Positions 1-26,902 of a DNA stretch of 64,000 nt are shown here, piece after piece. The position numbers and the translations under genes were made by a program. The stretch is taken from sequence record MK047718.1, one strand, 5' to 3'. The notes beneath the pieces are model-generated. The model worked only from the letters and a program-made list of their open reading frames with translations. It made no database searches and was not told the DNA's origin. This DNA is from Escherichia phage p000y. Positions within the stretch are counted from its first letter, which is position 1; each line of letters starts with the position of its first letter.

Positions 1-1397
1 GCCATAACGTAATTGTTAACTGGTGTGATATTATTCCTGACTTTGGTTCATGGTCTTGGAATGTTAACGCAATCTATGTTAAGGGTGATGAATGTCGATA
101 TAATTTCGATGGTGAAAATATCACTAACGTAGGTTCAACAGGTGGTAATGTTGTAGGAATTTATCAGTTCAAAGACTGGGAATTCTACATGGGTTCTACT
201 GATGAGGAAATTCACGAATACTGCAAAGGTCGTGATTTCGTAGAATTCCTTTACGGCAGTGCATTCAATAAATCAGAGCTTATGAATCTAATTGATTTAG
301 GTGATATGCCTAAACTTGAAAAGGCTCATGAAGTTCGTGAACTGAATCGTAGTTTTAATGCAGTTGAAATTGGCGAAGAAACTGTAACTAAATTCGCGTT
401 AACCGAACAAGGTCGAGCTCTTCAAAAAGATGAGATTTCATGGTATTTGAAAGTGAAATCAGATTCAGTTCCTCAGTTAGTTTCGGTAAATGAAAATAAT
501 TTTGAAATGGAACGTATTAAAGGTAAGCCGGCATTTGAATATATTAAATCCAAATCAAGTCTTGCTCGTCCACAAATTGTTGATGCAATTTTAGATGCAC
601 TGAAATTCAGCACGGACACTTATTTTGTAAGTCCTGAAACTGTTCGCCGTGATTTCACTAAAGAGTTCTATACGAAAGTTATTGATCGTTGTGAAAGCAT
701 TCAGCCATTGATTGATTCATTTGGTAAAATCACACACGTGAACTACACTAAAATTGGACGTCTGAAGCCAATGTTGAAACAAGCTTTAGAACATCTTATT
801 CGTTATCATAACCGTTCTCAGGGACAGTACTCTGTTATTCATGGTGACCCGAACTTCAGTAATACTATGATTACCGATAACGGCGAAGTCAAGTTTATCG
901 ACCCTCGTGGATATTTTGGTGAAACCAAGATTTACGGGCCAAAATTATATGATGAAGCTAAAGTGCTTTATGCTGTTTCAGGTTATGATGAATTCAATGC
1001 TAATCCGACCTGGGGACAGTTTACTATTGATGAAACAACTTGTAATGTGACTATTAACATCAATCCATTAGTTTACAAATATGGAAAGATGAGTTCGTTT
1101 AACGAGTATCATCATTTGGCTGTAGCAATTATCTGGATTGCATTAGGTGGTTATTTCAAGAATAATCCACTTAAAGCGGTTGCCGCATATTATAAAGGTA
1201 TGGAACTTCTGACTAAGCAATTACGTAACATGGGCCGTGTACTTCAAGACGGCTCTATTAGTTATGACGTAGCAGAACCTGTAACGGCTACTCTGATTAC
1301 AAAAAATCCTGGTAAATGGGTACTAACTGATAAAGAAACTGGTGTTTCCTATCGTCCAATCGGCGGCGATATCACTCATCAATGGGAACGAATCTAA
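1..1397 (+). CDS. 5'-truncated fusion protein: C-terminal part of a LicC/MurU-like nucleotidyltransferase joined to an APH/choline-kinase-fold (LicA/AmgK-like) kinase
   Basis: Frame 3 is open from the window edge (HNVIVNWCDIIPDFGSW...GGNVVGIYQFKDWEFY) into tracked ORF 189-1397, so the first Met is not the real start. The kinase half has the HxDxxxxN signature (IHGDPNFSN) followed by Mg-binding FIDPRG. The NTase assignment of the N-terminal remnant is weak. Confidence 0.55.
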   Translation, partial: HNVIVNWCDIIPDFGSWSWNVNAIYVKGDECRYNFDGENITNVGSTGGNVVGIYQFKDWEFYMGSTDEEIHEYCKGRDFVEFLYGSAFNKSELMNLIDLGDMPKLEKAHEVRELNRSFNAVEIGEETVTKFALTEQGRALQKDEISWYLKVKSDSVPQLVSVNENNFEMERIKGKPAFEYIKSKSSLARPQIVDAILDALKFSTDTYFVSPETVRRDFTKEFYTKVIDRCESIQPLIDSFGKITHVNYTKIGRLKPMLKQALEHLIRYHNRSQGQYSVIHGDPNFSNTMITDNGEVKFIDPRGYFGETKIYGPKLYDEAKVLYAVSGYDEFNANPTWGQFTIDETTCNVTININPLVYKYGKMSSFNEYHHLAVAIIWIALGGYFKNNPLKAVAAYYKGMELLTKQLRNMGRVLQDGSISYDVAEPVTATLITKNPGKWVLTDKETGVSYRPIGGDITHQWERI

Positions 1398-1783
1398 TGC
1401 ACCGTGTAGAAAACATGCTTAATCTTTGTTTTGATGTCGATGATTGTATAACAGAGTGGAATAACAATCGTGATTACGTGAACTTCAAACCAGACGTCGA
1501 AATGGTGTCTGCCATTAATGCCCTGTATGATGCAGGGCATACCATAACGCTTTACACTGCCCGTGGTATGAAGTCGGTAGGTCCTGGTCGTATAGCAATT
1601 GACATTCTCCCAAGTCTGATTCAGAACTTGGAAAACATTGGTTTGAAGTACCATAATTTGCTAACACATAAACCAGTATATGATTGGATTATCGACGACA
1701 AAGCTATGCGTCCTGACGAATTCAAAGCTCTTATGAATAAAGGCGAATTCGAAACATTTAAATCATATAAACCAAATCTATAA
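1397..1783 (+). CDS. small HAD-superfamily phosphatase
   Basis: ATG at 1397 overlaps the upstream stop (TAATG). HAD motif I is FDVDDCIT near the N-terminus, motif II LYTARG, motif IV WIIDDKA. 128 aa. Confidence 0.6.
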   Translation: MHRVENMLNLCFDVDDCITEWNNNRDYVNFKPDVEMVSAINALYDAGHTITLYTARGMKSVGPGRIAIDILPSLIQNLENIGLKYHNLLTHKPVYDWIIDDKAMRPDEFKALMNKGEFETFKSYKPNL

Positions 1784-1829
1784 TAATTTAAGTAAGACCT
1801 GCAAAAACCATCGCATCAATTAACGCGAG

Positions 1830-2999
1830 ATGCAAAAAATGAATACTTTTAAAATCGGAACGAATTTTGATTTAGCTCTTCTTGATAAAATCGTAGAGCT
1901 CAATAAAACCTATCCTAATAGCTTGATAAACGAAGTATATGGCTCTACAAGAGAAATGGCTTTTGTAGCAGCCAGACCTGATTTTAGGCTTCCTGACGTT
2001 GACAAAAAGATGTTAGAAGACTACGTTAAACGTTGTAACGAATTAGGTATTTGCTTTAACTATACACTCAACACGATAAATCCTGGTTCAAAAAGAGAAC
2101 TAGTTGAGTGGAAGAAGAAAGCTATTCAGGATTATGTTCAGTATCTTTGGTCAATAGGCGTATGGCGTATTACTATCGCTAACCCTGTTGTTATGGAAAT
2201 TGTTCGTGAAGTCAATAAAGATATTGAGATTGAAGTTTCAACAATTCTACATGTCGATGCGGTAACTCAAATCAAATACTTACATGACCAATATAACATC
2301 AAAAAGGTCTGTTGCGGAATTCATAAGAACCGTTCAGTTTCTTTCCTGAAGCGTGCAGCAGAGTTTTGCAATAAGAACAATATAATATTTGAAGTTCTTG
2401 TAAATGAGTTCTGTTCTAATGCTGGTAAAGGGTATACAACACATTGTAGTTATCGTGACTCTTGCTATATTTTCCATAGTACTGATGTTACCGCTGATGA
2501 TGCTAAATCCTTAAATGGATATCCTATGCAGCACTGTATTAAAGCTCGTGATACAGACCCATTTAACTGGTTGAGAACTCGTTTTGTTCGTCCTCAAGAT
2601 TTGAAACTTTATAATGATATTGGTATCACTCAATTCAAAGTTTCAGGACGTACAGGTAGCACAGACTACATTTTGAAAGTTCTTGAAGCATACGCTTCTG
2701 AAAAGTTTGAAGGTAATTTGTTAGAACTGTGGAAGCCTTTAGAGACTATTTTCACTCTTGAAAATGAGACTGAGTTTTCACATACAGTAAATATTGAAAC
2801 CTCTTTGTTAGATGGCTTTTTAGAAAAAAGGTGGTTCAGACATCCAGATTTTGATTGTGCTAATGAAATCTGTGGGTCAACGTGTACATATTGTGAAAGG
2901 TATTATAAACGTCAATTATCTAAAAACGGGTTAGCAGAAAACTCCATATCTATTATTGATATAACTAACTCTGATGACGCTTTGAGGTACCCGGAATGA
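1830..2999 (+). CDS. peptidase-U32-family protein (TIM-barrel, Cys-rich / Fe-S type)
   Basis: 389 aa with a UbiU/YhbU-like layout. N-terminal FKIGTNFDLALLDKIVEL, CFNYTLNT, central Cys cluster EFCSNAGKGYTTHCSYRDSC...HC, and ITQFKVSGRTGSTDYILKVLEAY (compare the family KIEGR segment). Extra C-terminal CANEICGSTCTYC cluster. Confidence 0.6.
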   Translation: MQKMNTFKIGTNFDLALLDKIVELNKTYPNSLINEVYGSTREMAFVAARPDFRLPDVDKKMLEDYVKRCNELGICFNYTLNTINPGSKRELVEWKKKAIQDYVQYLWSIGVWRITIANPVVMEIVREVNKDIEIEVSTILHVDAVTQIKYLHDQYNIKKVCCGIHKNRSVSFLKRAAEFCNKNNIIFEVLVNEFCSNAGKGYTTHCSYRDSCYIFHSTDVTADDAKSLNGYPMQHCIKARDTDPFNWLRTRFVRPQDLKLYNDIGITQFKVSGRTGSTDYILKVLEAYASEKFEGNLLELWKPLETIFTLENETEFSHTVNIETSLLDGFLEKRWFRHPDFDCANEICGSTCTYCERYYKRQLSKNGLAENSISIIDITNSDDALRYPE

Positions 3000-3235
3000 T
3001 TTCTAGAAAAAGTTTTAATTATAAACTTAACGAAGAGATTTTGACTATGAAACTGAACACTAACGAACAAATTCTTAAAAAGGCCCTTATGGGCCTGTTT
3101 GAAACCAAAGCGGCTAAAGTGATTAAAGAACCTGTTCAATTGGAATACTACACTGATGCATTCCTTCATAGTGTTCTTGGAAGTATAGATTCTGAAGCTT
3201 TACGTTATATCAACATTGTCAAGAAATTCAAATAA
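2996..3235 (+). CDS. hypothetical protein (79 aa)
   Basis: ATGA overlap with the U32 stop suggests translational coupling. No recognisable family. Confidence 0.5.
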   Translation: MISRKSFNYKLNEEILTMKLNTNEQILKKALMGLFETKAAKVIKEPVQLEYYTDAFLHSVLGSIDSEALRYINIVKKFK

Positions 3236-3277: not shown

Positions 3278-3994
3278 ATGGGAAAACATAACACAATGAA
3301 ATATATCAAAGCCGCAGATTTTCAAACCGCATTTAAAGCAGTCAATCGTGAAATTTTAGAAAACCCGGAATTCGTAACTGATTCTCGTATTGGACGTTGT
3401 AATGAAATTGGGTCTATGACAGTAGTTGTTGACACTCCATCATCATTCAAAATGACCGACCCACGTATTAACCGCATCTCTTATGAATATGCCGAAGACT
3501 TCTGGAAGTTTATGATTTCTGGTGGTACCAACGCAGAAGAAGCGTTTAAGGCATATCCTAATGTCGCTAAATTTATTTCTAAACCAAAATCAGATGTTTT
3601 GCCGGCGAACTTCAACACTTTCTATGGTCCTCGCATTGCGGCCCAATTACCAACTCTTCTAAAAGAACTTAAAGAAAAACCTAACTCTCGAAGAGTTGTG
3701 TTCCAAATTCTAGAAAGTTCTGATCAGGCTTTGCTTGATTCGGACGAAACACTTGAATATCCATGTACTGACTCAGTAACTTATTATATTCGTGATGGTA
3801 AGCTTTATACCCACTGTCATATGCGTTCTCAGAACTGTGCTGTTGTTATGCAGTTGGATTTTTATCTCCAAGGAAAATTACTTCATTATATCGCTAACGA
3901 ATGCGGTGTAGAAGTTGGTGATTATACTCATACCATGGTAAGTGCCCATGTGTTTGAACGTGATTTTGATTATGTTAAAGGATTCCTTGACTAA
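3278..3994 (+). CDS. thymidylate-synthase-fold deoxycytidylate hydroxymethylase-like enzyme (gene 42 position, divergent from T4 gp42)
   Basis: TS-family blocks NSRRVVFQI, catalytic Cys in EYPCTDSVTYYIRDGKL, HMRSQNCAVVMQLDFY with Asp where true TS has Asn. GAGG SD lies 8 nt upstream and a MotA-box promoter sits at 3235-3258. Confidence 0.7.
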   Translation: MGKHNTMKYIKAADFQTAFKAVNREILENPEFVTDSRIGRCNEIGSMTVVVDTPSSFKMTDPRINRISYEYAEDFWKFMISGGTNAEEAFKAYPNVAKFISKPKSDVLPANFNTFYGPRIAAQLPTLLKELKEKPNSRRVVFQILESSDQALLDSDETLEYPCTDSVTYYIRDGKLYTHCHMRSQNCAVVMQLDFYLQGKLLHYIANECGVEVGDYTHTMVSAHVFERDFDYVKGFLD

Positions 3995-4893
3995 TGGCTA
4001 TTTTCCGCGTACCAATCTTGAGTATGCGGTCTTATGAAACTGGACAGTATGCTATCCTTAAGGATGGCAACTTCCAACTTCATTTGCACCGTGCTAATCC
4101 GGGTGATGTGATTACATATCCACGTAATGCATCTGATATTAAAGAATGCGAACGTCTTTTCCCAGAATTTAAGTTTGTTCCATTATGGTATAAAGATAAC
4201 GCGTATAACACTCGTAAATATTTCTGGACTGAAAATGAATTTGTGGTTGATTCATTAATTGATTATTATGATTGTGATTTTCTAATCACAGATATCACTG
4301 GTTATGGCGGCGCTTTTGATGTGGAATTCAATTTCAATATCACTGCAGACCCTAATAAACCACGTTTTTATATTGATGAATTCTTAAAAACCGACATGTT
4401 GTCTGTTAATCGTTCACTTCAAACTACTGTGTTGAATGAACGTCAAAAAGAAGTGCTGGTTAACGCAGGTGCAGATGGTAATAAGATTATCGTAACGCAG
4501 AAAGTTATACGTCCTTCCATCATGCAGCGTCTTGTAGGTGATTTGGCTCCTATTCATCTAGATGGTATTTTTCATCCATTTCGAATTAGTGACCCATGTT
4601 ATCGTTTTGAACAAGTGGTTGAATGTGCAATTCAATTAGGTCAACCGCTTTATATAACCGATCCAAATAATAGCTTCGACAGAAATAAGTATCCTGAAGA
4701 AGCGCTGATTCGAATTTTTAAACCAACTAAAACTGAGTACTATCAAATTCTTAAAGGACGTCCGAAAATTCAATATTTCGAAAATCCTGAAGAAGTATTC
4801 CATCCAGGTCTTGGTGAGTTCATCTACTTTAATGCTTTAATTTCTTCGCCGTATAATATACCTAAATACGAAGATGTCGTAATCGAGGAATAA
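3994..4893 (+). CDS. hypothetical 299-aa protein in the T4 beta-glucosyltransferase slot; candidate DNA sugar transferase
   Basis: TAATG-coupled to the hydroxymethylase-like gene and lying between it and uvsX, where T4 has beta-gt. No motif I can assign firmly (HPFRISDP, FHPGLGEF). The function is inferred from position only. Confidence 0.45.
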   Translation: MAIFRVPILSMRSYETGQYAILKDGNFQLHLHRANPGDVITYPRNASDIKECERLFPEFKFVPLWYKDNAYNTRKYFWTENEFVVDSLIDYYDCDFLITDITGYGGAFDVEFNFNITADPNKPRFYIDEFLKTDMLSVNRSLQTTVLNERQKEVLVNAGADGNKIIVTQKVIRPSIMQRLVGDLAPIHLDGIFHPFRISDPCYRFEQVVECAIQLGQPLYITDPNNSFDRNKYPEEALIRIFKPTKTEYYQILKGRPKIQYFENPEEVFHPGLGEFIYFNALISSPYNIPKYEDVVIEE

Positions 4894-4894
4894 A

Positions 4895-5443
4895 ATGGCT
4901 AAAATTATTTTAGTAGATGGCCCGGATAATGCTGGTAAAACAACTTTCATTAATGACATAATGGAAATTAGTGAAAGATATGTAAAGATTGATTTCCCTA
5001 AACGAACAGTTGATGGACGTTTCGATGTTAAGTCTCGAAATGAAGTTGGCTGTTTCGAAACGATGTTGAATTATTTAGACCCTACTAAGATTTATCTGTT
5101 AGACCGTGGATATATTAGTAACTGGGTTTATGGACGTATTCGACAAGATGCGGACTCGATTCTTGACGTTTATGAACAGGACTATGTTCGTCTTTGCCAA
5201 AACCATGATGTGTTCACAATTATTTTAACACGTAACGAAATGACTGAAAGTTTTGAAGACGACCTTATTACTTTGTCTTCATTCGGTTTTAATACAGTCA
5301 TTTCACATTTTGAAGAGTTTGCAATTCATAACAAAATCCAAACGTATCAATTACTTAATCATGATGGTGCTAACAAAGTTATAGGATTTAATGCAAGCGA
5401 ACGTAATTATTTGATTACAGAAATTATCAAATGGGCTCGTTAA
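4895..5443 (+). CDS. P-loop thymidylate-kinase-like (d)NMP kinase
   Basis: Walker A GPDNAGKTT near the N-terminus and a TMK-like DR[YH] motif (DRGYISNWVYG). 182 aa. Unlike T4 gp1. Confidence 0.6.
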   Translation: MAKIILVDGPDNAGKTTFINDIMEISERYVKIDFPKRTVDGRFDVKSRNEVGCFETMLNYLDPTKIYLLDRGYISNWVYGRIRQDADSILDVYEQDYVRLCQNHDVFTIILTRNEMTESFEDDLITLSSFGFNTVISHFEEFAIHNKIQTYQLLNHDGANKVIGFNASERNYLITEIIKWAR

Positions 5444-23941: not shown

Positions 23942-25759
23942 ATGATTAAAAATGAAATTAAGGTATTGTCAGATGTAGAACATATTAAGAAACGTAGTGG
24001 TATGTATATTGGTTCTTCTGCTAAAGAAGCACATGAGCGTTTTTTGTTTGGTAAATATCAACAAGTTGAATATGTTCCAGGTCTGGTTAAATTAATCGAT
24101 GAGATTATTGACAACTCGGTTGATGAAGCTATTCGTACATCATTTAAGTTTGCAAATAAAATTGATGTGCAAATTAAAAATAATCAAGTTTCGGTGGAAG
24201 ATAACGGACGTGGTATTCCTCAAGGTTTAGTTACCGACCAAACAGGTGAACAAATTCCTGGTCCTGTAGCAGCCTGGACTATTCCAAAGGCCGGTGGTAA
24301 CTTTGGTGATGACTCTGAACGCAAGACTGGTGGTATGAACGGCGTCGGGAGTAGTTTAACTAATATCTTCTCTACGTTGTTTACAGGCATCACGTCAGAT
24401 GGCGAAAATGAAATCACTGTTAACTGTTCAAACGGAATGGAAAACAAATCATGGTCTTCTAAGAAATCTAAAGGTAAAGGCACTAAAGTAATCTTCACTC
24501 CTGATTTCTCTTCATTTGAAGAGCATAATTTATCTCAAATTTATTTAGATATTACTTTAGACAGACTTCAAACATTGGCAGTCGTTTATCCTGATATCAA
24601 GTTCACATTTAATGGTAAAAAGGTTGATGGTAATTTTAAACGATTTGCTAAACAATTTGGTGAAGATAACATCATTCAAGAAAATGATAAAGTCTCTATA
24701 GCATTCACAACATCACCAGATGGCTTCCGTCATTTAACTTATGTGAATAACATCCATACTAAAAATGGTGGTCATCATGTTGAATGTGTAATGGATGATA
24801 TCTGCGAACATCTTTTGCCTGGTATTAAAAAGAAATATAAGGGTATTGAAGTCACTAAAGCTCGTGTTAAAGAATGCCTCACAATGTTGATGTTTATTAG
24901 AGACATGAGCAATATGCGTTTTGATTCTCAGACTAAAGAACGTTTAACGTCAACGTATGGTGATATTCGTAATCATATCCAATTAGATGCTAAGAAAATT
25001 GCTCAGGCACTTCTTAAAAACGAAGCCTTGATTATGCCTATTGTTGAAGCAGCATTAGCTCGTAAATTGGCGGCAGAAAAGGCTGCAGAAACTAAAGCAG
25101 CTAAAAAGGCAACTAAAGCTAAGGTTCATAAGCATATTAAAGCTAACCAATGTGGTAAAGACGCAGATACGACATTGTTCTTAACAGAAGGTGATTCTGC
25201 AATTGGTTATCTCATTGATGTTCGTGACCGTGAACTACACGGCGGATTCCCATTACGTGGTAAGGTGATGAATAGCTGGGGTATGTCATATGCGGATATG
25301 ATGAAGAACAAAGAGCTCTTTGATATCTGTGCTATCACAGGTCTTATTCTTGGTGAAAAGGCCGAGAATACGAACTATCGTAATATTGCAATTATGACTG
25401 ACGCAGATCACGACGGTCTTGGAAGTATCTATCCGGCTTTGCTTGCTTTCTTTAGTAATTGGCCTGAATTGTTTGAACAAGGACGTATTCGCTTTGTTAA
25501 AACACCTGTAATTATTGCACAAATTGGCAAAACTCAAAAATGGTTTTATACTGTAGCTGAGTATGAAGAAGTTAAAGATACACTGCCTAAGCATAGTATT
25601 CGATACATCAAGGGATTAGGCTCCCTTGAAAAGTCAGAGTATCGTGAAATGATTCAGAACCCTGTGTACGACGTAGTTAAACTTCCTGAAAATTGGAAAG
25701 AACTCTTTGAAATGTTGATGGGTGATGATTCAGAACTTCGTAAAGAATGGATGTCCTAA
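23942..25759 (+). CDS. 39: DNA topoisomerase II large subunit (gp39 with gp60 portion fused, GyrB-like)
   Basis: GHKL ATPase motifs (EIIDNSVDEA, DNGRGIP, GGMNGVGSS) and Toprim (LTEGDSA, MTDADHDG) lie in a single 605-aa ORF. There is no separate gene 60. Confidence 0.95.
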   Translation: MIKNEIKVLSDVEHIKKRSGMYIGSSAKEAHERFLFGKYQQVEYVPGLVKLIDEIIDNSVDEAIRTSFKFANKIDVQIKNNQVSVEDNGRGIPQGLVTDQTGEQIPGPVAAWTIPKAGGNFGDDSERKTGGMNGVGSSLTNIFSTLFTGITSDGENEITVNCSNGMENKSWSSKKSKGKGTKVIFTPDFSSFEEHNLSQIYLDITLDRLQTLAVVYPDIKFTFNGKKVDGNFKRFAKQFGEDNIIQENDKVSIAFTTSPDGFRHLTYVNNIHTKNGGHHVECVMDDICEHLLPGIKKKYKGIEVTKARVKECLTMLMFIRDMSNMRFDSQTKERLTSTYGDIRNHIQLDAKKIAQALLKNEALIMPIVEAALARKLAAEKAAETKAAKKATKAKVHKHIKANQCGKDADTTLFLTEGDSAIGYLIDVRDRELHGGFPLRGKVMNSWGMSYADMMKNKELFDICAITGLILGEKAENTNYRNIAIMTDADHDGLGSIYPALLAFFSNWPELFEQGRIRFVKTPVIIAQIGKTQKWFYTVAEYEEVKDTLPKHSIRYIKGLGSLEKSEYREMIQNPVYDVVKLPENWKELFEMLMGDDSELRKEWMS

Positions 25760-25801: not shown

Positions 25802-26902
25802 ATGAAAGTTATGTTTATCCCATCTCGCGCAGTCCCATTTAACCCAGAACGTGTACAAGGTGGTCTTGAAGCAGTACATTTAAATGTGTTGAAATATTTA
25901 GTTTCTATCTGTGCTGATATTGATTATATCGGTTTTGATAATGACACATTTGGTGATTGGAAGGTTAATCATCATCCTGTTGGTCATCTGACAAAATTCA
26001 GTCTAGGTATGAGTTATACTATGGCTCGTAAGATTGTTGAACTAGCCGGCATCCATGAATACGATTTCGTTGTTACTATGGAACCGACTAAACTAACCGT
26101 TCAGGCAATTAAAGACGCAGGCCTCTCTAAAGTTCATAAGAATTTTATGGCAACACCATTTGAACCGGTATCTCGTGGCATTGTTCAAATTTGGGACCAG
26201 ACTATTCAAATTCATAAGAATGGTGGTAAGAGTTATGCTCCTACTAAAGCCTTCCGTGAATTTGAACGCAAATATTGTTATATGACTTCAGGTCTGACTG
26301 ACAAAATTGATTATGATTATTGGCGAGCAAATCCGTTGTTTGAAGCCGAAGATTATCCGGTTATTTGTTTGAATGAGAAACCTGAAGTTCTTCCGGCGAC
26401 GGATCTGATTATTAGTGCACAACGTTATGACACTAAAATGCGTCGTACTGATGTTGCTCTTGAAGCGATTAAAGCACTAGGCGAAAATGGTGCAGGATAC
26501 TGTCCTAGTAAATGGGCACCACCAGCTAAATATCCTGTTATTATTGATGCTCCACACAGTGAAATCATGGAACGCCTTAAAACAGCTAAAGCACTTATTA
26601 ATACGTGTCCTGACACAGGTACGGTAGAGAATAGTTCTATTGAAGCCATCTCTAAAGGTGTCCCTGTAATCCAGTTAGTTTTTAAGGATTATCCTCATGC
26701 GACATTTGAATACGACCCAGATACTGTGCGTGTAGAAATTGATTCCTCTACTCCTAAGAAAGAAGTAGTTGCGCTTTACACAAAAGCTGTATTAGAATTC
26801 ACTGACACATACGAAGCTCGAGTTAAACGTGCTGAAGCAGTATGGAAGAAGTATAACCGAGATGCAGTTGTTGCGATGTGGGATAAAATCTTCACAGCGT
26901 AA
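25802..26902 (+). CDS. GT-B (GT4-like) glycosyltransferase, candidate DNA sugar transferase
   Basis: N-terminal MKVMFIPSR...GGLE, C-terminal ISAQRYDTKMRRTDVALEAIKAL and TGTVENSSIEAISKGVPVI (E...EA..G.PVI donor-binding pattern). Sits between 39 and rIIA.1, where T4 has gene 60/mobA. Confidence 0.6.
   Translation: MKVMFIPSRAVPFNPERVQGGLEAVHLNVLKYLVSICADIDYIGFDNDTFGDWKVNHHPVGHLTKFSLGMSYTMARKIVELAGIHEYDFVVTMEPTKLTVQAIKDAGLSKVHKNFMATPFEPVSRGIVQIWDQTIQIHKNGGKSYAPTKAFREFERKYCYMTSGLTDKIDYDYWRANPLFEAEDYPVICLNEKPEVLPATDLIISAQRYDTKMRRTDVALEAIKALGENGAGYCPSKWAPPAKYPVIIDAPHSEIMERLKTAKALINTCPDTGTVENSSIEAISKGVPVIQLVFKDYPHATFEYDPDTVRVEIDSSTPKKEVVALYTKAVLEFTDTYEARVKRAEAVWKKYNRDAVVAMWDKIFTA

Follow-up and report, generated by a model that had tools for sequence, protein, structure and literature searches.

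The 64,000-nucleotide stretch of Escherichia phage p000y DNA analysed here (record MK047718.1), hereafter the window, opens with two adjoining plus-strand genes at positions 1-1783, which very probably belong to the uridine diphosphate (UDP)-D-arabinofuranose supply module of an RB69-like T-even phage of the genus Mosigvirus, with the kinase acting before the phosphatase. The first gene encodes a fusion of a nucleotidyltransferase and a kinase, and the second encodes a small HAD phosphatase. The architecture, folds, motifs, synteny and gene fusions described below come from our analysis, and the sugar, the UDP carrier and the reaction order come from the literature. In the proposed pathway, a KpsF-like SIS isomerase of the phage, whose gene lies immediately upstream of the window, would convert host ribulose-5-phosphate into D-arabinose-5-phosphate, and the kinase domain of the fusion would phosphorylate the anomeric C1 to yield arabinofuranose-1,5-bisphosphate. 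The HAD phosphatase would then take off the 5-phosphate, and the nucleotidyltransferase domain would combine the resulting arabinofuranose-1-phosphate with uridine triphosphate to form UDP-arabinofuranose. A thymidylate synthase (ThyA) homologue would supply the acceptor base as 5-hydroxy-deoxycytidine monophosphate (5-hydroxy-dCMP), and two glycosyltransferases would move arabinose onto 5-hydroxycytosine in DNA (see the table below).

A first-pass annotation made from the letters of the sequence had proposed that the two genes draw on a host central metabolite to make a nucleoside diphosphate (NDP)-sugar, which is supported by the UDP-arabinofuranose route as summarised in PMC13326640. Arabinose stood first among the sugars it listed for assay, and arabinose is the sugar according to the literature. 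It did not recognise the published RB69 arabinosylation module, and its description of the route as self-contained holds only when the KpsF-like isomerase gene, which lies upstream of the window, is counted.

The 402-amino-acid (aa) open reading frame (ORF) beginning at the ATG at 189 is only the tail of a larger gene, as had been expected from its being open to the window edge. In frame 3 of the plus strand no stop codon occurs from base 3 until the TAA at 1395-1397, and the full ORF comprises 561 aa, the 464 C-terminal residues of which are encoded by window positions 3-1394. A protein search with these 464 residues found a database protein of 561 aa (P0001) that matches them with 100% identity along the entire query. 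The N-terminus was recovered from phage genomes that are 98-99.8% identical, with no stop between the gene start and the window; the full coding sequence of 561 codons lies at L001:5712-7397 in NC_041863. Recovery of the upstream sequence, the check that the annotation had asked for, thus placed the N-terminal part, with its nucleotidyltransferase match, in the same gene. The strings quoted in that annotation lie at 141-185 (GGNVVGIYQFKDWEF), 234-254 (DFVEFLY), 837-863 (IHGDPNFSN) and 894-911 (FIDPRG) in the first gene and at 1430-1453 (FDVDDCIT) and 1685-1705 (WIIDDKA) in the second. The search with the in-window residues returned more than 150 relatives of the fusion (E <= 1e-5), of which 120 were listed, mostly with lengths of 500-570 aa, and 48 relatives of the HAD protein were found, nearly all from phages that also encode the fusion. 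Given the complete identity to a database protein and the numbers of homologues of both products, the observation of both ORFs is confirmed and is not due to chance.

The fusion consists of a LicC/RmlA/MurU-fold sugar-1-phosphate nucleotidyltransferase followed by an APH/choline-kinase-fold kinase in one polypeptide of 561 aa, within the size range of AfhE-type proteins (about 550-565 aa). The Pfam NTP_transferase profile (PF00483) matched residues 3-99 at 38.4 bits, its cut-off being 21.2. Modelled with AlphaFold2 from an alignment of 36 sequences, the protein reached a mean predicted local distance difference test (pLDDT) score of 92.4 and a predicted template modelling score of 0.89. MurU was the top Foldseek match of the N-terminal domain, the strong structural matches of which were all nucleotidyltransferases with the G-x-G-x-R / K signature, in agreement with the earlier suggestion that a LicC/MurU-type enzyme ends in the part preceding the kinase. 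The fusion carries this signature as well, but it is encoded upstream of the window, which holds only the tail of the domain; G10, R14, P23-K24 and D106 are invariant in an alignment of homologues that are 29-100% identical. When the full fusion was searched against PDB sequences, no solved structure of it was found, and the only matches were to nucleotidyltransferases at the N-terminus, the best being LicC (E = 2.4e-5).

The C-terminal half displays a bilobal kinase fold with the ATP-binding lysine K227 (390-392), the Brenner motif H377-G-D379-x4-N384 (840-863) and the Mg-binding motif D397-P-R-G (900-911), and the signature strings from which an APH/choline-kinase-type enzyme had been called are present. 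Invariant residues in the same homologues are K227, E241, H377-G-D379, N384 and D397-P-R-G-Y-F-G, and PF01636 is recorded for several homologues of the fusion. The C-terminal extension of about 55 aa is kept in T4-like and closer homologues and is missing from distant ones (alignment columns 680-742). An identity with GlmU was rejected, as the fusion scored 22.1 bits against a cut-off of 366.85 for TIGR01173 and has no acetyltransferase domain; the GlmU label of public records is explained by the shared nucleotidyltransferase N-terminus and nothing more.

The HAD gene is coupled to the fusion through the overlap TAATG at 1395-1399, as had been noted in the first pass: the upstream stop codon TAA occupies 1395-1397 and the HAD start codon ATG 1397-1399, with one A common to both. 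This start agrees with the annotated 128-aa coding sequence in related phages and with residues 7-134 of the PDB chain 9iqw_A, to which the protein is identical at 127 of its 128 residues. All four motifs of the superfamily (DxD, T/S, K and DD on a Rossmannoid core) are present, namely motif I FDVDD (1430-1444), motif II T-A-R (1556-1564), motif III K92 (1670-1672) and motif IV DD (1694-1699), and residues D13-V-D15, T54, K92 and D100-D101 are in register with those of 1xpj, a hypothetical protein (E = 1.4e-10). From the entry series and names we tentatively infer that 9iqw is AfhF and that 9iqw, 9iqc and 9ir2 are the phage HY126 structures of He et al. The NCBIfam model TIGR01689 for the capsule biosynthesis phosphatases EcbF/BcbF gave 50.7 bits against a cut-off of 162, making the protein a relative and, by the curated threshold, not a member of that family. 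The RefSeq name of the HAD gene, 'phosphoheptose isomerase', is a misnomer.

Positions 1-3000 of the window share 99.5-99.8% identity with several Mosigvirus (RB69 group) phages of Escherichia, at least 80% of this interval is covered in 153 records, and the fusion gene is present in 373 phage records. Over residues 1-561, the fusion is 99.5% identical to that of RB69 (AY303349), which is split into two pieces at a published sequencing error. The gene order in the Mosigvirus relatives is gp43 DNA polymerase, the KpsF-like isomerase with a 47-aa ORF, the fusion, the HAD gene, a U32 'peptidase', a small ORF, the thymidylate synthase homologue, a 299-aa protein, a P-loop kinase and UvsX. The gene upstream of the fusion, outside the window, encodes a KpsF/KdsD-family isomerase (E = 2e-32 and 7e-31).

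We assembled 86 loci that encode a fusion relative, screened their ORFs with profiles built iteratively and recorded the neighbours within 10 kb. A SIS isomerase gene was present in 57 loci, mostly directly before the fusion, and a HAD gene in 44, almost always directly after it; the 299-aa glycosyltransferase occurred in 45 and the ThyA homologue in 34. At a gut-metagenome phage locus with a fusion only 30% identical, the fusion, HAD and SIS genes are consecutive. Relatives in giant-virus metagenome-assembled genomes (MAGs) are proteins of 880-930 aa with an N-terminal HAD_2 domain (L048, L050, L053, L055, L060, L063, L070 and L073), and one of them combines HAD_2, SIS, NTP_transferase and kinase domains in a single 929-aa ORF (L060:8780-11566), which suggests an arabinose-type nucleotide-sugar pathway in Nucleocytoviricota. 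Butyrivibrio proteins join the nucleotidyltransferase-kinase to a C-terminal SIS domain (PMC6024577). From the giant-virus and Butyrivibrio fusions, we therefore take the four activities to form one pathway acting on a KpsF-type substrate, arabinose-5-phosphate. The conserved synteny across the 86 loci and the four-domain giant-virus fusion are the additions of this analysis.

Two groups of loci depart from this layout. Dhakavirus-type loci (L026-L029, L034 and L051) keep the fusion, the HAD gene, the ThyA homologue and the glycosyltransferase with no SIS isomerase within 10 kb, and these phages presumably use the host KdsD/GutQ. Large-phage contigs of up to 343 kb, several of them over 300 kb (L035-L046), keep the SIS gene and the fusion with no HAD gene detected within 10 kb.

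The module itself is already known, with a prediction dating from 2018 and biochemical characterisation from 2025-2026. Thomas et al. 2018 reported arabinose in RB69 DNA, proposed ORF055c and ORF53_52c for UDP-arabinose synthesis and corrected the RB69 sequencing error, thereby defining ORF53_52c as one 561-residue protein (PMC6024577). Lee et al. 2026 showed the modified base to be 5-hydroxycytosine with one or two arabinoses, or three in phage DLP3, with mono- and di-arabinosyl-5-hydroxycytosine in RB69 DNA, and their models assign gp55 as the isomerase, gp52:53 as the nucleotidyltransferase/kinase and gp51 as the phosphatase (PMC13326640). The same DNA modification occurs in a Mosigvirus member of the Durham collection (PMC13390438). 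According to the summary of He et al. 2026 in PMC13326640, AfhE of HY126 is a kinase for D-arabinose-5-phosphate as well as a UDP-D-arabinose pyrophosphorylase, and AfhF is a Mg-dependent phosphatase that converts arabinofuranose-1,5-bisphosphate into arabinofuranose-1-phosphate; PMC13326640 equates the two with RB69 gp52:53 (ORF53_52c) and gp51. The kinase and uridylyltransferase activities predicted here for the 561-aa protein are taken from that summary. Both systems comprise a 561-aa nucleotidyltransferase-kinase followed by a small HAD phosphatase, in a neighbourhood of an arabinose-5-phosphate isomerase, a U32 protein, a ThyA-like hydroxylase and a glycosyltransferase. In a comparison made through RB69 and 9iqw, we detected no difference from AfhE/AfhF, the window edge merely cutting the first gene.

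The closest analogue in reaction logic is the ADP-heptose route of GmhA, HldE and GmhB, which likewise runs from a SIS isomerase through a C1 kinase and a HAD enzyme acting on the bisphosphate to nucleotidylation by the same bifunctional enzyme. In HldE, a ribokinase-fold kinase is joined to a cytidylyltransferase-fold adenylyltransferase. The likeness is one of analogy and not of homology: the fusion pairs an APH-fold kinase with an RmlA/LicC-fold nucleotidyltransferase in the reverse domain order, and the pathway here uses UDP and a pentofuranose. Among the NCBIfam matches at E <= 0.01, neither protein hit a model for HldE or GmhB.

Several points weigh against the assignment of the two genes to UDP-arabinofuranose supply or against its details. 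In the Pfam scan, the kinase domain of P0001 fell below the cut-offs (Fructosamin_kin, 16.7 against 22.4 bits; Seadorna_VP7, 17.7 against 20.3), and no APH-family profile reached its threshold. In about 40 of the 86 loci, no HAD gene could be recognised within 10 kb, and the phosphatase step there may be supplied some other way. The probable tie to HY126 AfhE runs through RB69 and the literature and not through a direct AfhE alignment, and the reaction order and UDP specificity rest on the secondary summary of He et al. 2026 in PMC13326640. Purified TH1_060 of Shewanella phage Thanatos, about 53% identical to the fusion, made no NDP-sugar from xylose-1-phosphate and any nucleoside triphosphate, and UDP-xylose pyrophosphorylase activity was ascribed to TH1_063, a homologue of the 299-aa glycosyltransferase; the test of TH1_060 used xylose-1-phosphate, not arabinofuranose-1-phosphate (PMC12838424). 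This result conflicts with the AfhE assignment; a glycosyltransferase reaction running in reverse, or a wrong choice of test substrate, may account for it. Genetic evidence in favour of the module is that a start-codon frameshift in TH1_060 abolishes growth of Thanatos unless complemented (PMC12838424). A phage transposon-sequencing preprint gives no essentiality data on the arabinosylation genes.

The Thanatos work also leaves TH1_060 as a glycosyltransferase candidate, with UDP-xylose formation seen with TH1_063 (PMC12838424), and CDD calls the N-terminus of the fusion glycosyltransferase family A, so that the 561-aa protein might itself be a DNA glycosyltransferase while another protein activates the sugar. 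We consider this scarcely credible. Strong structural matches all fall among nucleotidyltransferases that bear the G-x-G-x-R / K signature, none being a Leloir glycosyltransferase, Thomas et al. found poor scores against hidden Markov models of phage glycosyltransferases (PMC6024577), TH1_060 moved no xylose to DNA, dCMP, deoxycytidine triphosphate or cytosine (PMC12838424), and the cluster has separate GT-B-like transferases.

The first-pass annotation had also left open a choline- or ethanolamine-type substrate, by which the genes would act as LicA/LicC do in Streptococcus pneumoniae phosphocholine metabolism and yield a cytidine diphosphate (CDP)-alcohol for modification of the phage or host surface. 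LicA and LicC are separate proteins that use an alcohol substrate and a CDP carrier, with neither a phosphatase step nor an isomerase partner; a phosphatase would be superfluous in such a route. The arabinose-5-phosphate isomerase gene that adjoins the fusion in 57 of the 86 loci, and is fused to it in a giant-virus MAG and in Butyrivibrio, the presence of DNA glycosyltransferases and a 5-hydroxy-dCMP synthase in the cluster, and the finding of arabinose, not phosphocholine, in the phage DNA (PMC6024577, PMC13326640, PMC13390438) make this context-based exclusion nearly complete. Both this proposal and that of a glycosyltransferase were rejected.

The order of the first two reactions on the sugar was weighed separately within the UDP-arabinofuranose pathway. 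The first-pass annotation had the phosphatase act first, and Table 1 of PMC13326640 gives this order too, stating that RB69p051 'dephosphorylates Araf5p to Ara' and that the C-terminal domain of the fusion 'phosphorylates Ara to Araf1p'; the HAD enzyme would then act on arabinose-5-phosphate and the kinase on C1 of free arabinose before UDP-arabinose is formed. A precedent exists in the recycling of N-acetylmuramic acid (MurNAc) by Pseudomonas, where the APH-fold anomeric kinase AmgK, the minimal RmlA-like uridylyltransferase MurU and the HAD phosphatase MupP also lead to a UDP-sugar, and MurU, as noted above, is the top structural match of the N-terminal domain. AmgK, MurU and MupP differ in being separate proteins with MurNAc as the substrate, the phosphatase acting first on a 6-phosphate monoester. 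We regard the phosphatase-first order as unlikely and the first-pass proposal as probably wrong in this respect, because the text of PMC13326640, in its summary of the HY126 enzymology, has the kinase act on D-arabinose-5-phosphate and the phosphatase on arabinofuranose-1,5-bisphosphate. Free arabinose would be expected to exist largely in the pyranose form, yet the product is a furanoside, and phosphorylation of C1 while C5 is still blocked would lock the furanose ring, which argues for the kinase acting before the phosphatase. The likeness to MurU holds at the level of fold only, as the fusion scored 24.8 bits against a cut-off of 250 for the MurU equivalog model NF045761 and 19.9 against 370 for NF045697. 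The HAD protein, moreover, has no cap domain. Caplessness is typical of GmhB-like enzymes rather than of capped sugar-monophosphate phosphatases.

Table. Features of the arabinosylation cluster in the window
Feature	Position	Strand	Remarks
Nucleotidyltransferase/kinase gene, 3' 1.4 kb	1..1397	+	residues 98-561 of the 561-aa protein; start codon 288 nucleotides upstream of the window
Sugar-1-phosphate nucleotidyltransferase domain, C-terminal part	3..320	+	about residues 98-205 of 1-205; includes invariant W104-C-D106
APH/choline-kinase-fold kinase domain	350..1232	+	about residues 214-507
C-terminal extension of about 55 aa, short beta strands	1233..1394	+	residues 508-561; model pLDDT 74-86
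Capless HAD phosphatase, 128 aa	1397..1783	+	equated in the literature with AfhF; RB69 gp51
U32-family protein, annotated 'peptidase'; RB69p050	1830..2999	+	Pfam PF01136, E = 7e-11
Thymidylate synthase homologue (5-hydroxy-dCMP synthase)	3278..3994	+	PDB 9iqc/9ir2 cover residues 1-238, E = 2.9e-160
299-aa glycosyltransferase, RB69 gp46:47 homologue, proposed first DNA arabinosyltransferase	3994..4893	+	assignment from PMC13326640
366-aa ORF, candidate counterpart of RB69 ORF003c (proposed second arabinosyltransferase)	25802..26902	+	by position and length only

Among the remaining genes of the cluster, the 5-hydroxy-dCMP synthase function has been demonstrated for RB69 gp48 (PMC13326640). The 299-aa glycosyltransferase had no match in Pfam or among PDB sequences. 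The 366-aa ORF sits between a gp39-type topoisomerase subunit (23942-25759; Pfam) and a rIIA-sized ORF, and its place and length agree with PMC6024577 and PMC13390438, the comparison being one of location and size and not of sequence; it had no Pfam match. The last gene of the cluster before uvsX encodes a 182-aa P-loop protein with the motif GPDNAGKT (4895-5443, plus strand), annotated as 'thymidylate kinase'. Its counterpart RB69p045 is listed as a 'nucleotide kinase' in PMC13326640, where the 5-hydroxy-dCMP kinase is shown to be another gene, gp159. NC_041863, PQ572755 (L001 and L002) and other GenBank records mislabel the cluster, with the nucleotidyltransferase-kinase as 'bifunctional protein GlmU', the HAD protein as 'phosphoheptose isomerase', the U32 protein as a 'peptidase', the glycosyltransferase as an 'RNA polymerase binding protein' and a 79-aa ORF as a 'P-loop NTP hydrolase'.

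The U32 gene next to the HAD gene is the most conserved of the cluster, its product being 76-88% identical among T4-like phages compared with about 50-74% for the fusion. Its AlphaFold2 model (pLDDT 89) displays a U32 TIM barrel, the top PDB structural match being the U32 protein 5d88, and ten cysteines are invariant, among them a C-terminal C-x4-C-x3-C-x2-C. It had no sequence match in the PDB. The phage U32 profile gave marginal scores against E. coli RlhA, TrhP, UbiU and UbiV (E about 1e-3 to 0.2), and the only NCBIfam hit was a sub-threshold one to UbiU (18.4 against 440); since these scores are marginal, the sequence does not tell which U32 paralogue is closest.

Of the 29 U32-bearing loci in the first survey, 19 have a chorismate mutase gene or a DAHP-synthase-chorismate-mutase fusion adjacent to the U32 gene. 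At 13 related T4-like loci, the U32 gene and the ThyA homologue are separated by a small ORF for a type II chorismate mutase (L010:13290-13526, L021:14322-14732 and 11 more), and two of these 13 ORFs were tested against Pfam CM_2, with scores of 40.9 and 43 bits (cut-off 27). These chorismate mutase loci are those of Serratia-, Yersinia-, Pectobacterium- and Edwardsiella-type relatives. The 79-aa ORF found at the corresponding place in the window (2996-3235, plus strand) was rejected as a chorismate mutase, being unrelated to it and having no Pfam match. The DAHP-synthase-chorismate-mutase fusion adjoins the U32 gene in six distant loci, followed in L004 and L005 by genes for 3-dehydroquinate synthase and shikimate kinase. 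In twelve U32-bearing loci (L003-L005, L065-L067, L069, L072, L074, L075, L079 and L091), no ThyA homologue was found within 10 kb. In two large phages with a DnaE-type polymerase, the U32 gene has genes for dCMP deaminase, thymidylate kinase and DnaE as neighbours, and sugar-activation genes are absent from the vicinity. The ThyA homologue occurs without a U32 gene in the loci matched to Acinetobacter, Pseudomonas and Dhakavirus phages.

The characterised U32 enzymes are O2-independent hydroxylases linked to prephenate, namely RlhA, which forms 5-hydroxycytidine (ho5C2501) in 23S rRNA (PMC5727448), TrhP, which forms 5-hydroxyuridine (ho5U34) in tRNA (PMC6599085), and UbiU/UbiV (PMC10990095). 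On this account the phage U32 protein might be a prephenate-dependent, O2-independent cytosine C5 hydroxylase acting on a nucleotide or on DNA, a tentative proposal that we consider less likely than not and that is drawn by analogy with these enzymes. PMC13326640 labels the RB69 homologue a 'sugar or heterocycle reductase' and makes no mention of U32, RlhA or prephenate. Our literature search, which did not extend to He et al. 2026 or Mahler et al. 2025, returned nothing on U32 together with 5-hydroxycytosine and phages. If the proposal is true, the U32 protein would provide an anaerobic route to 5-hydroxycytosine, alongside the O2/flavin-dependent ThyA-like synthase in Mosigvirus and in place of it in phages of gut anaerobes.

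In summary, no novel reading is left for the two main genes, and only the association of U32 with chorismate mutase offers a possible new contribution. For genome scans, the value of the result lies in the correct annotation of genes that are still labelled 'GlmU', 'phosphoheptose isomerase' or 'hypothetical'. Arabinosylated 5-hydroxycytosine is known from the literature to protect phage DNA against restriction enzymes, some CRISPR systems and other defences, and arabinosylated DNA is known to be a target of the type IV restriction enzymes GmrSD and BrxU as well. UDP-arabinofuranose is not made by E. coli, and its supply by the module to which these genes very probably belong would therefore be a key step in phage counter-defence.

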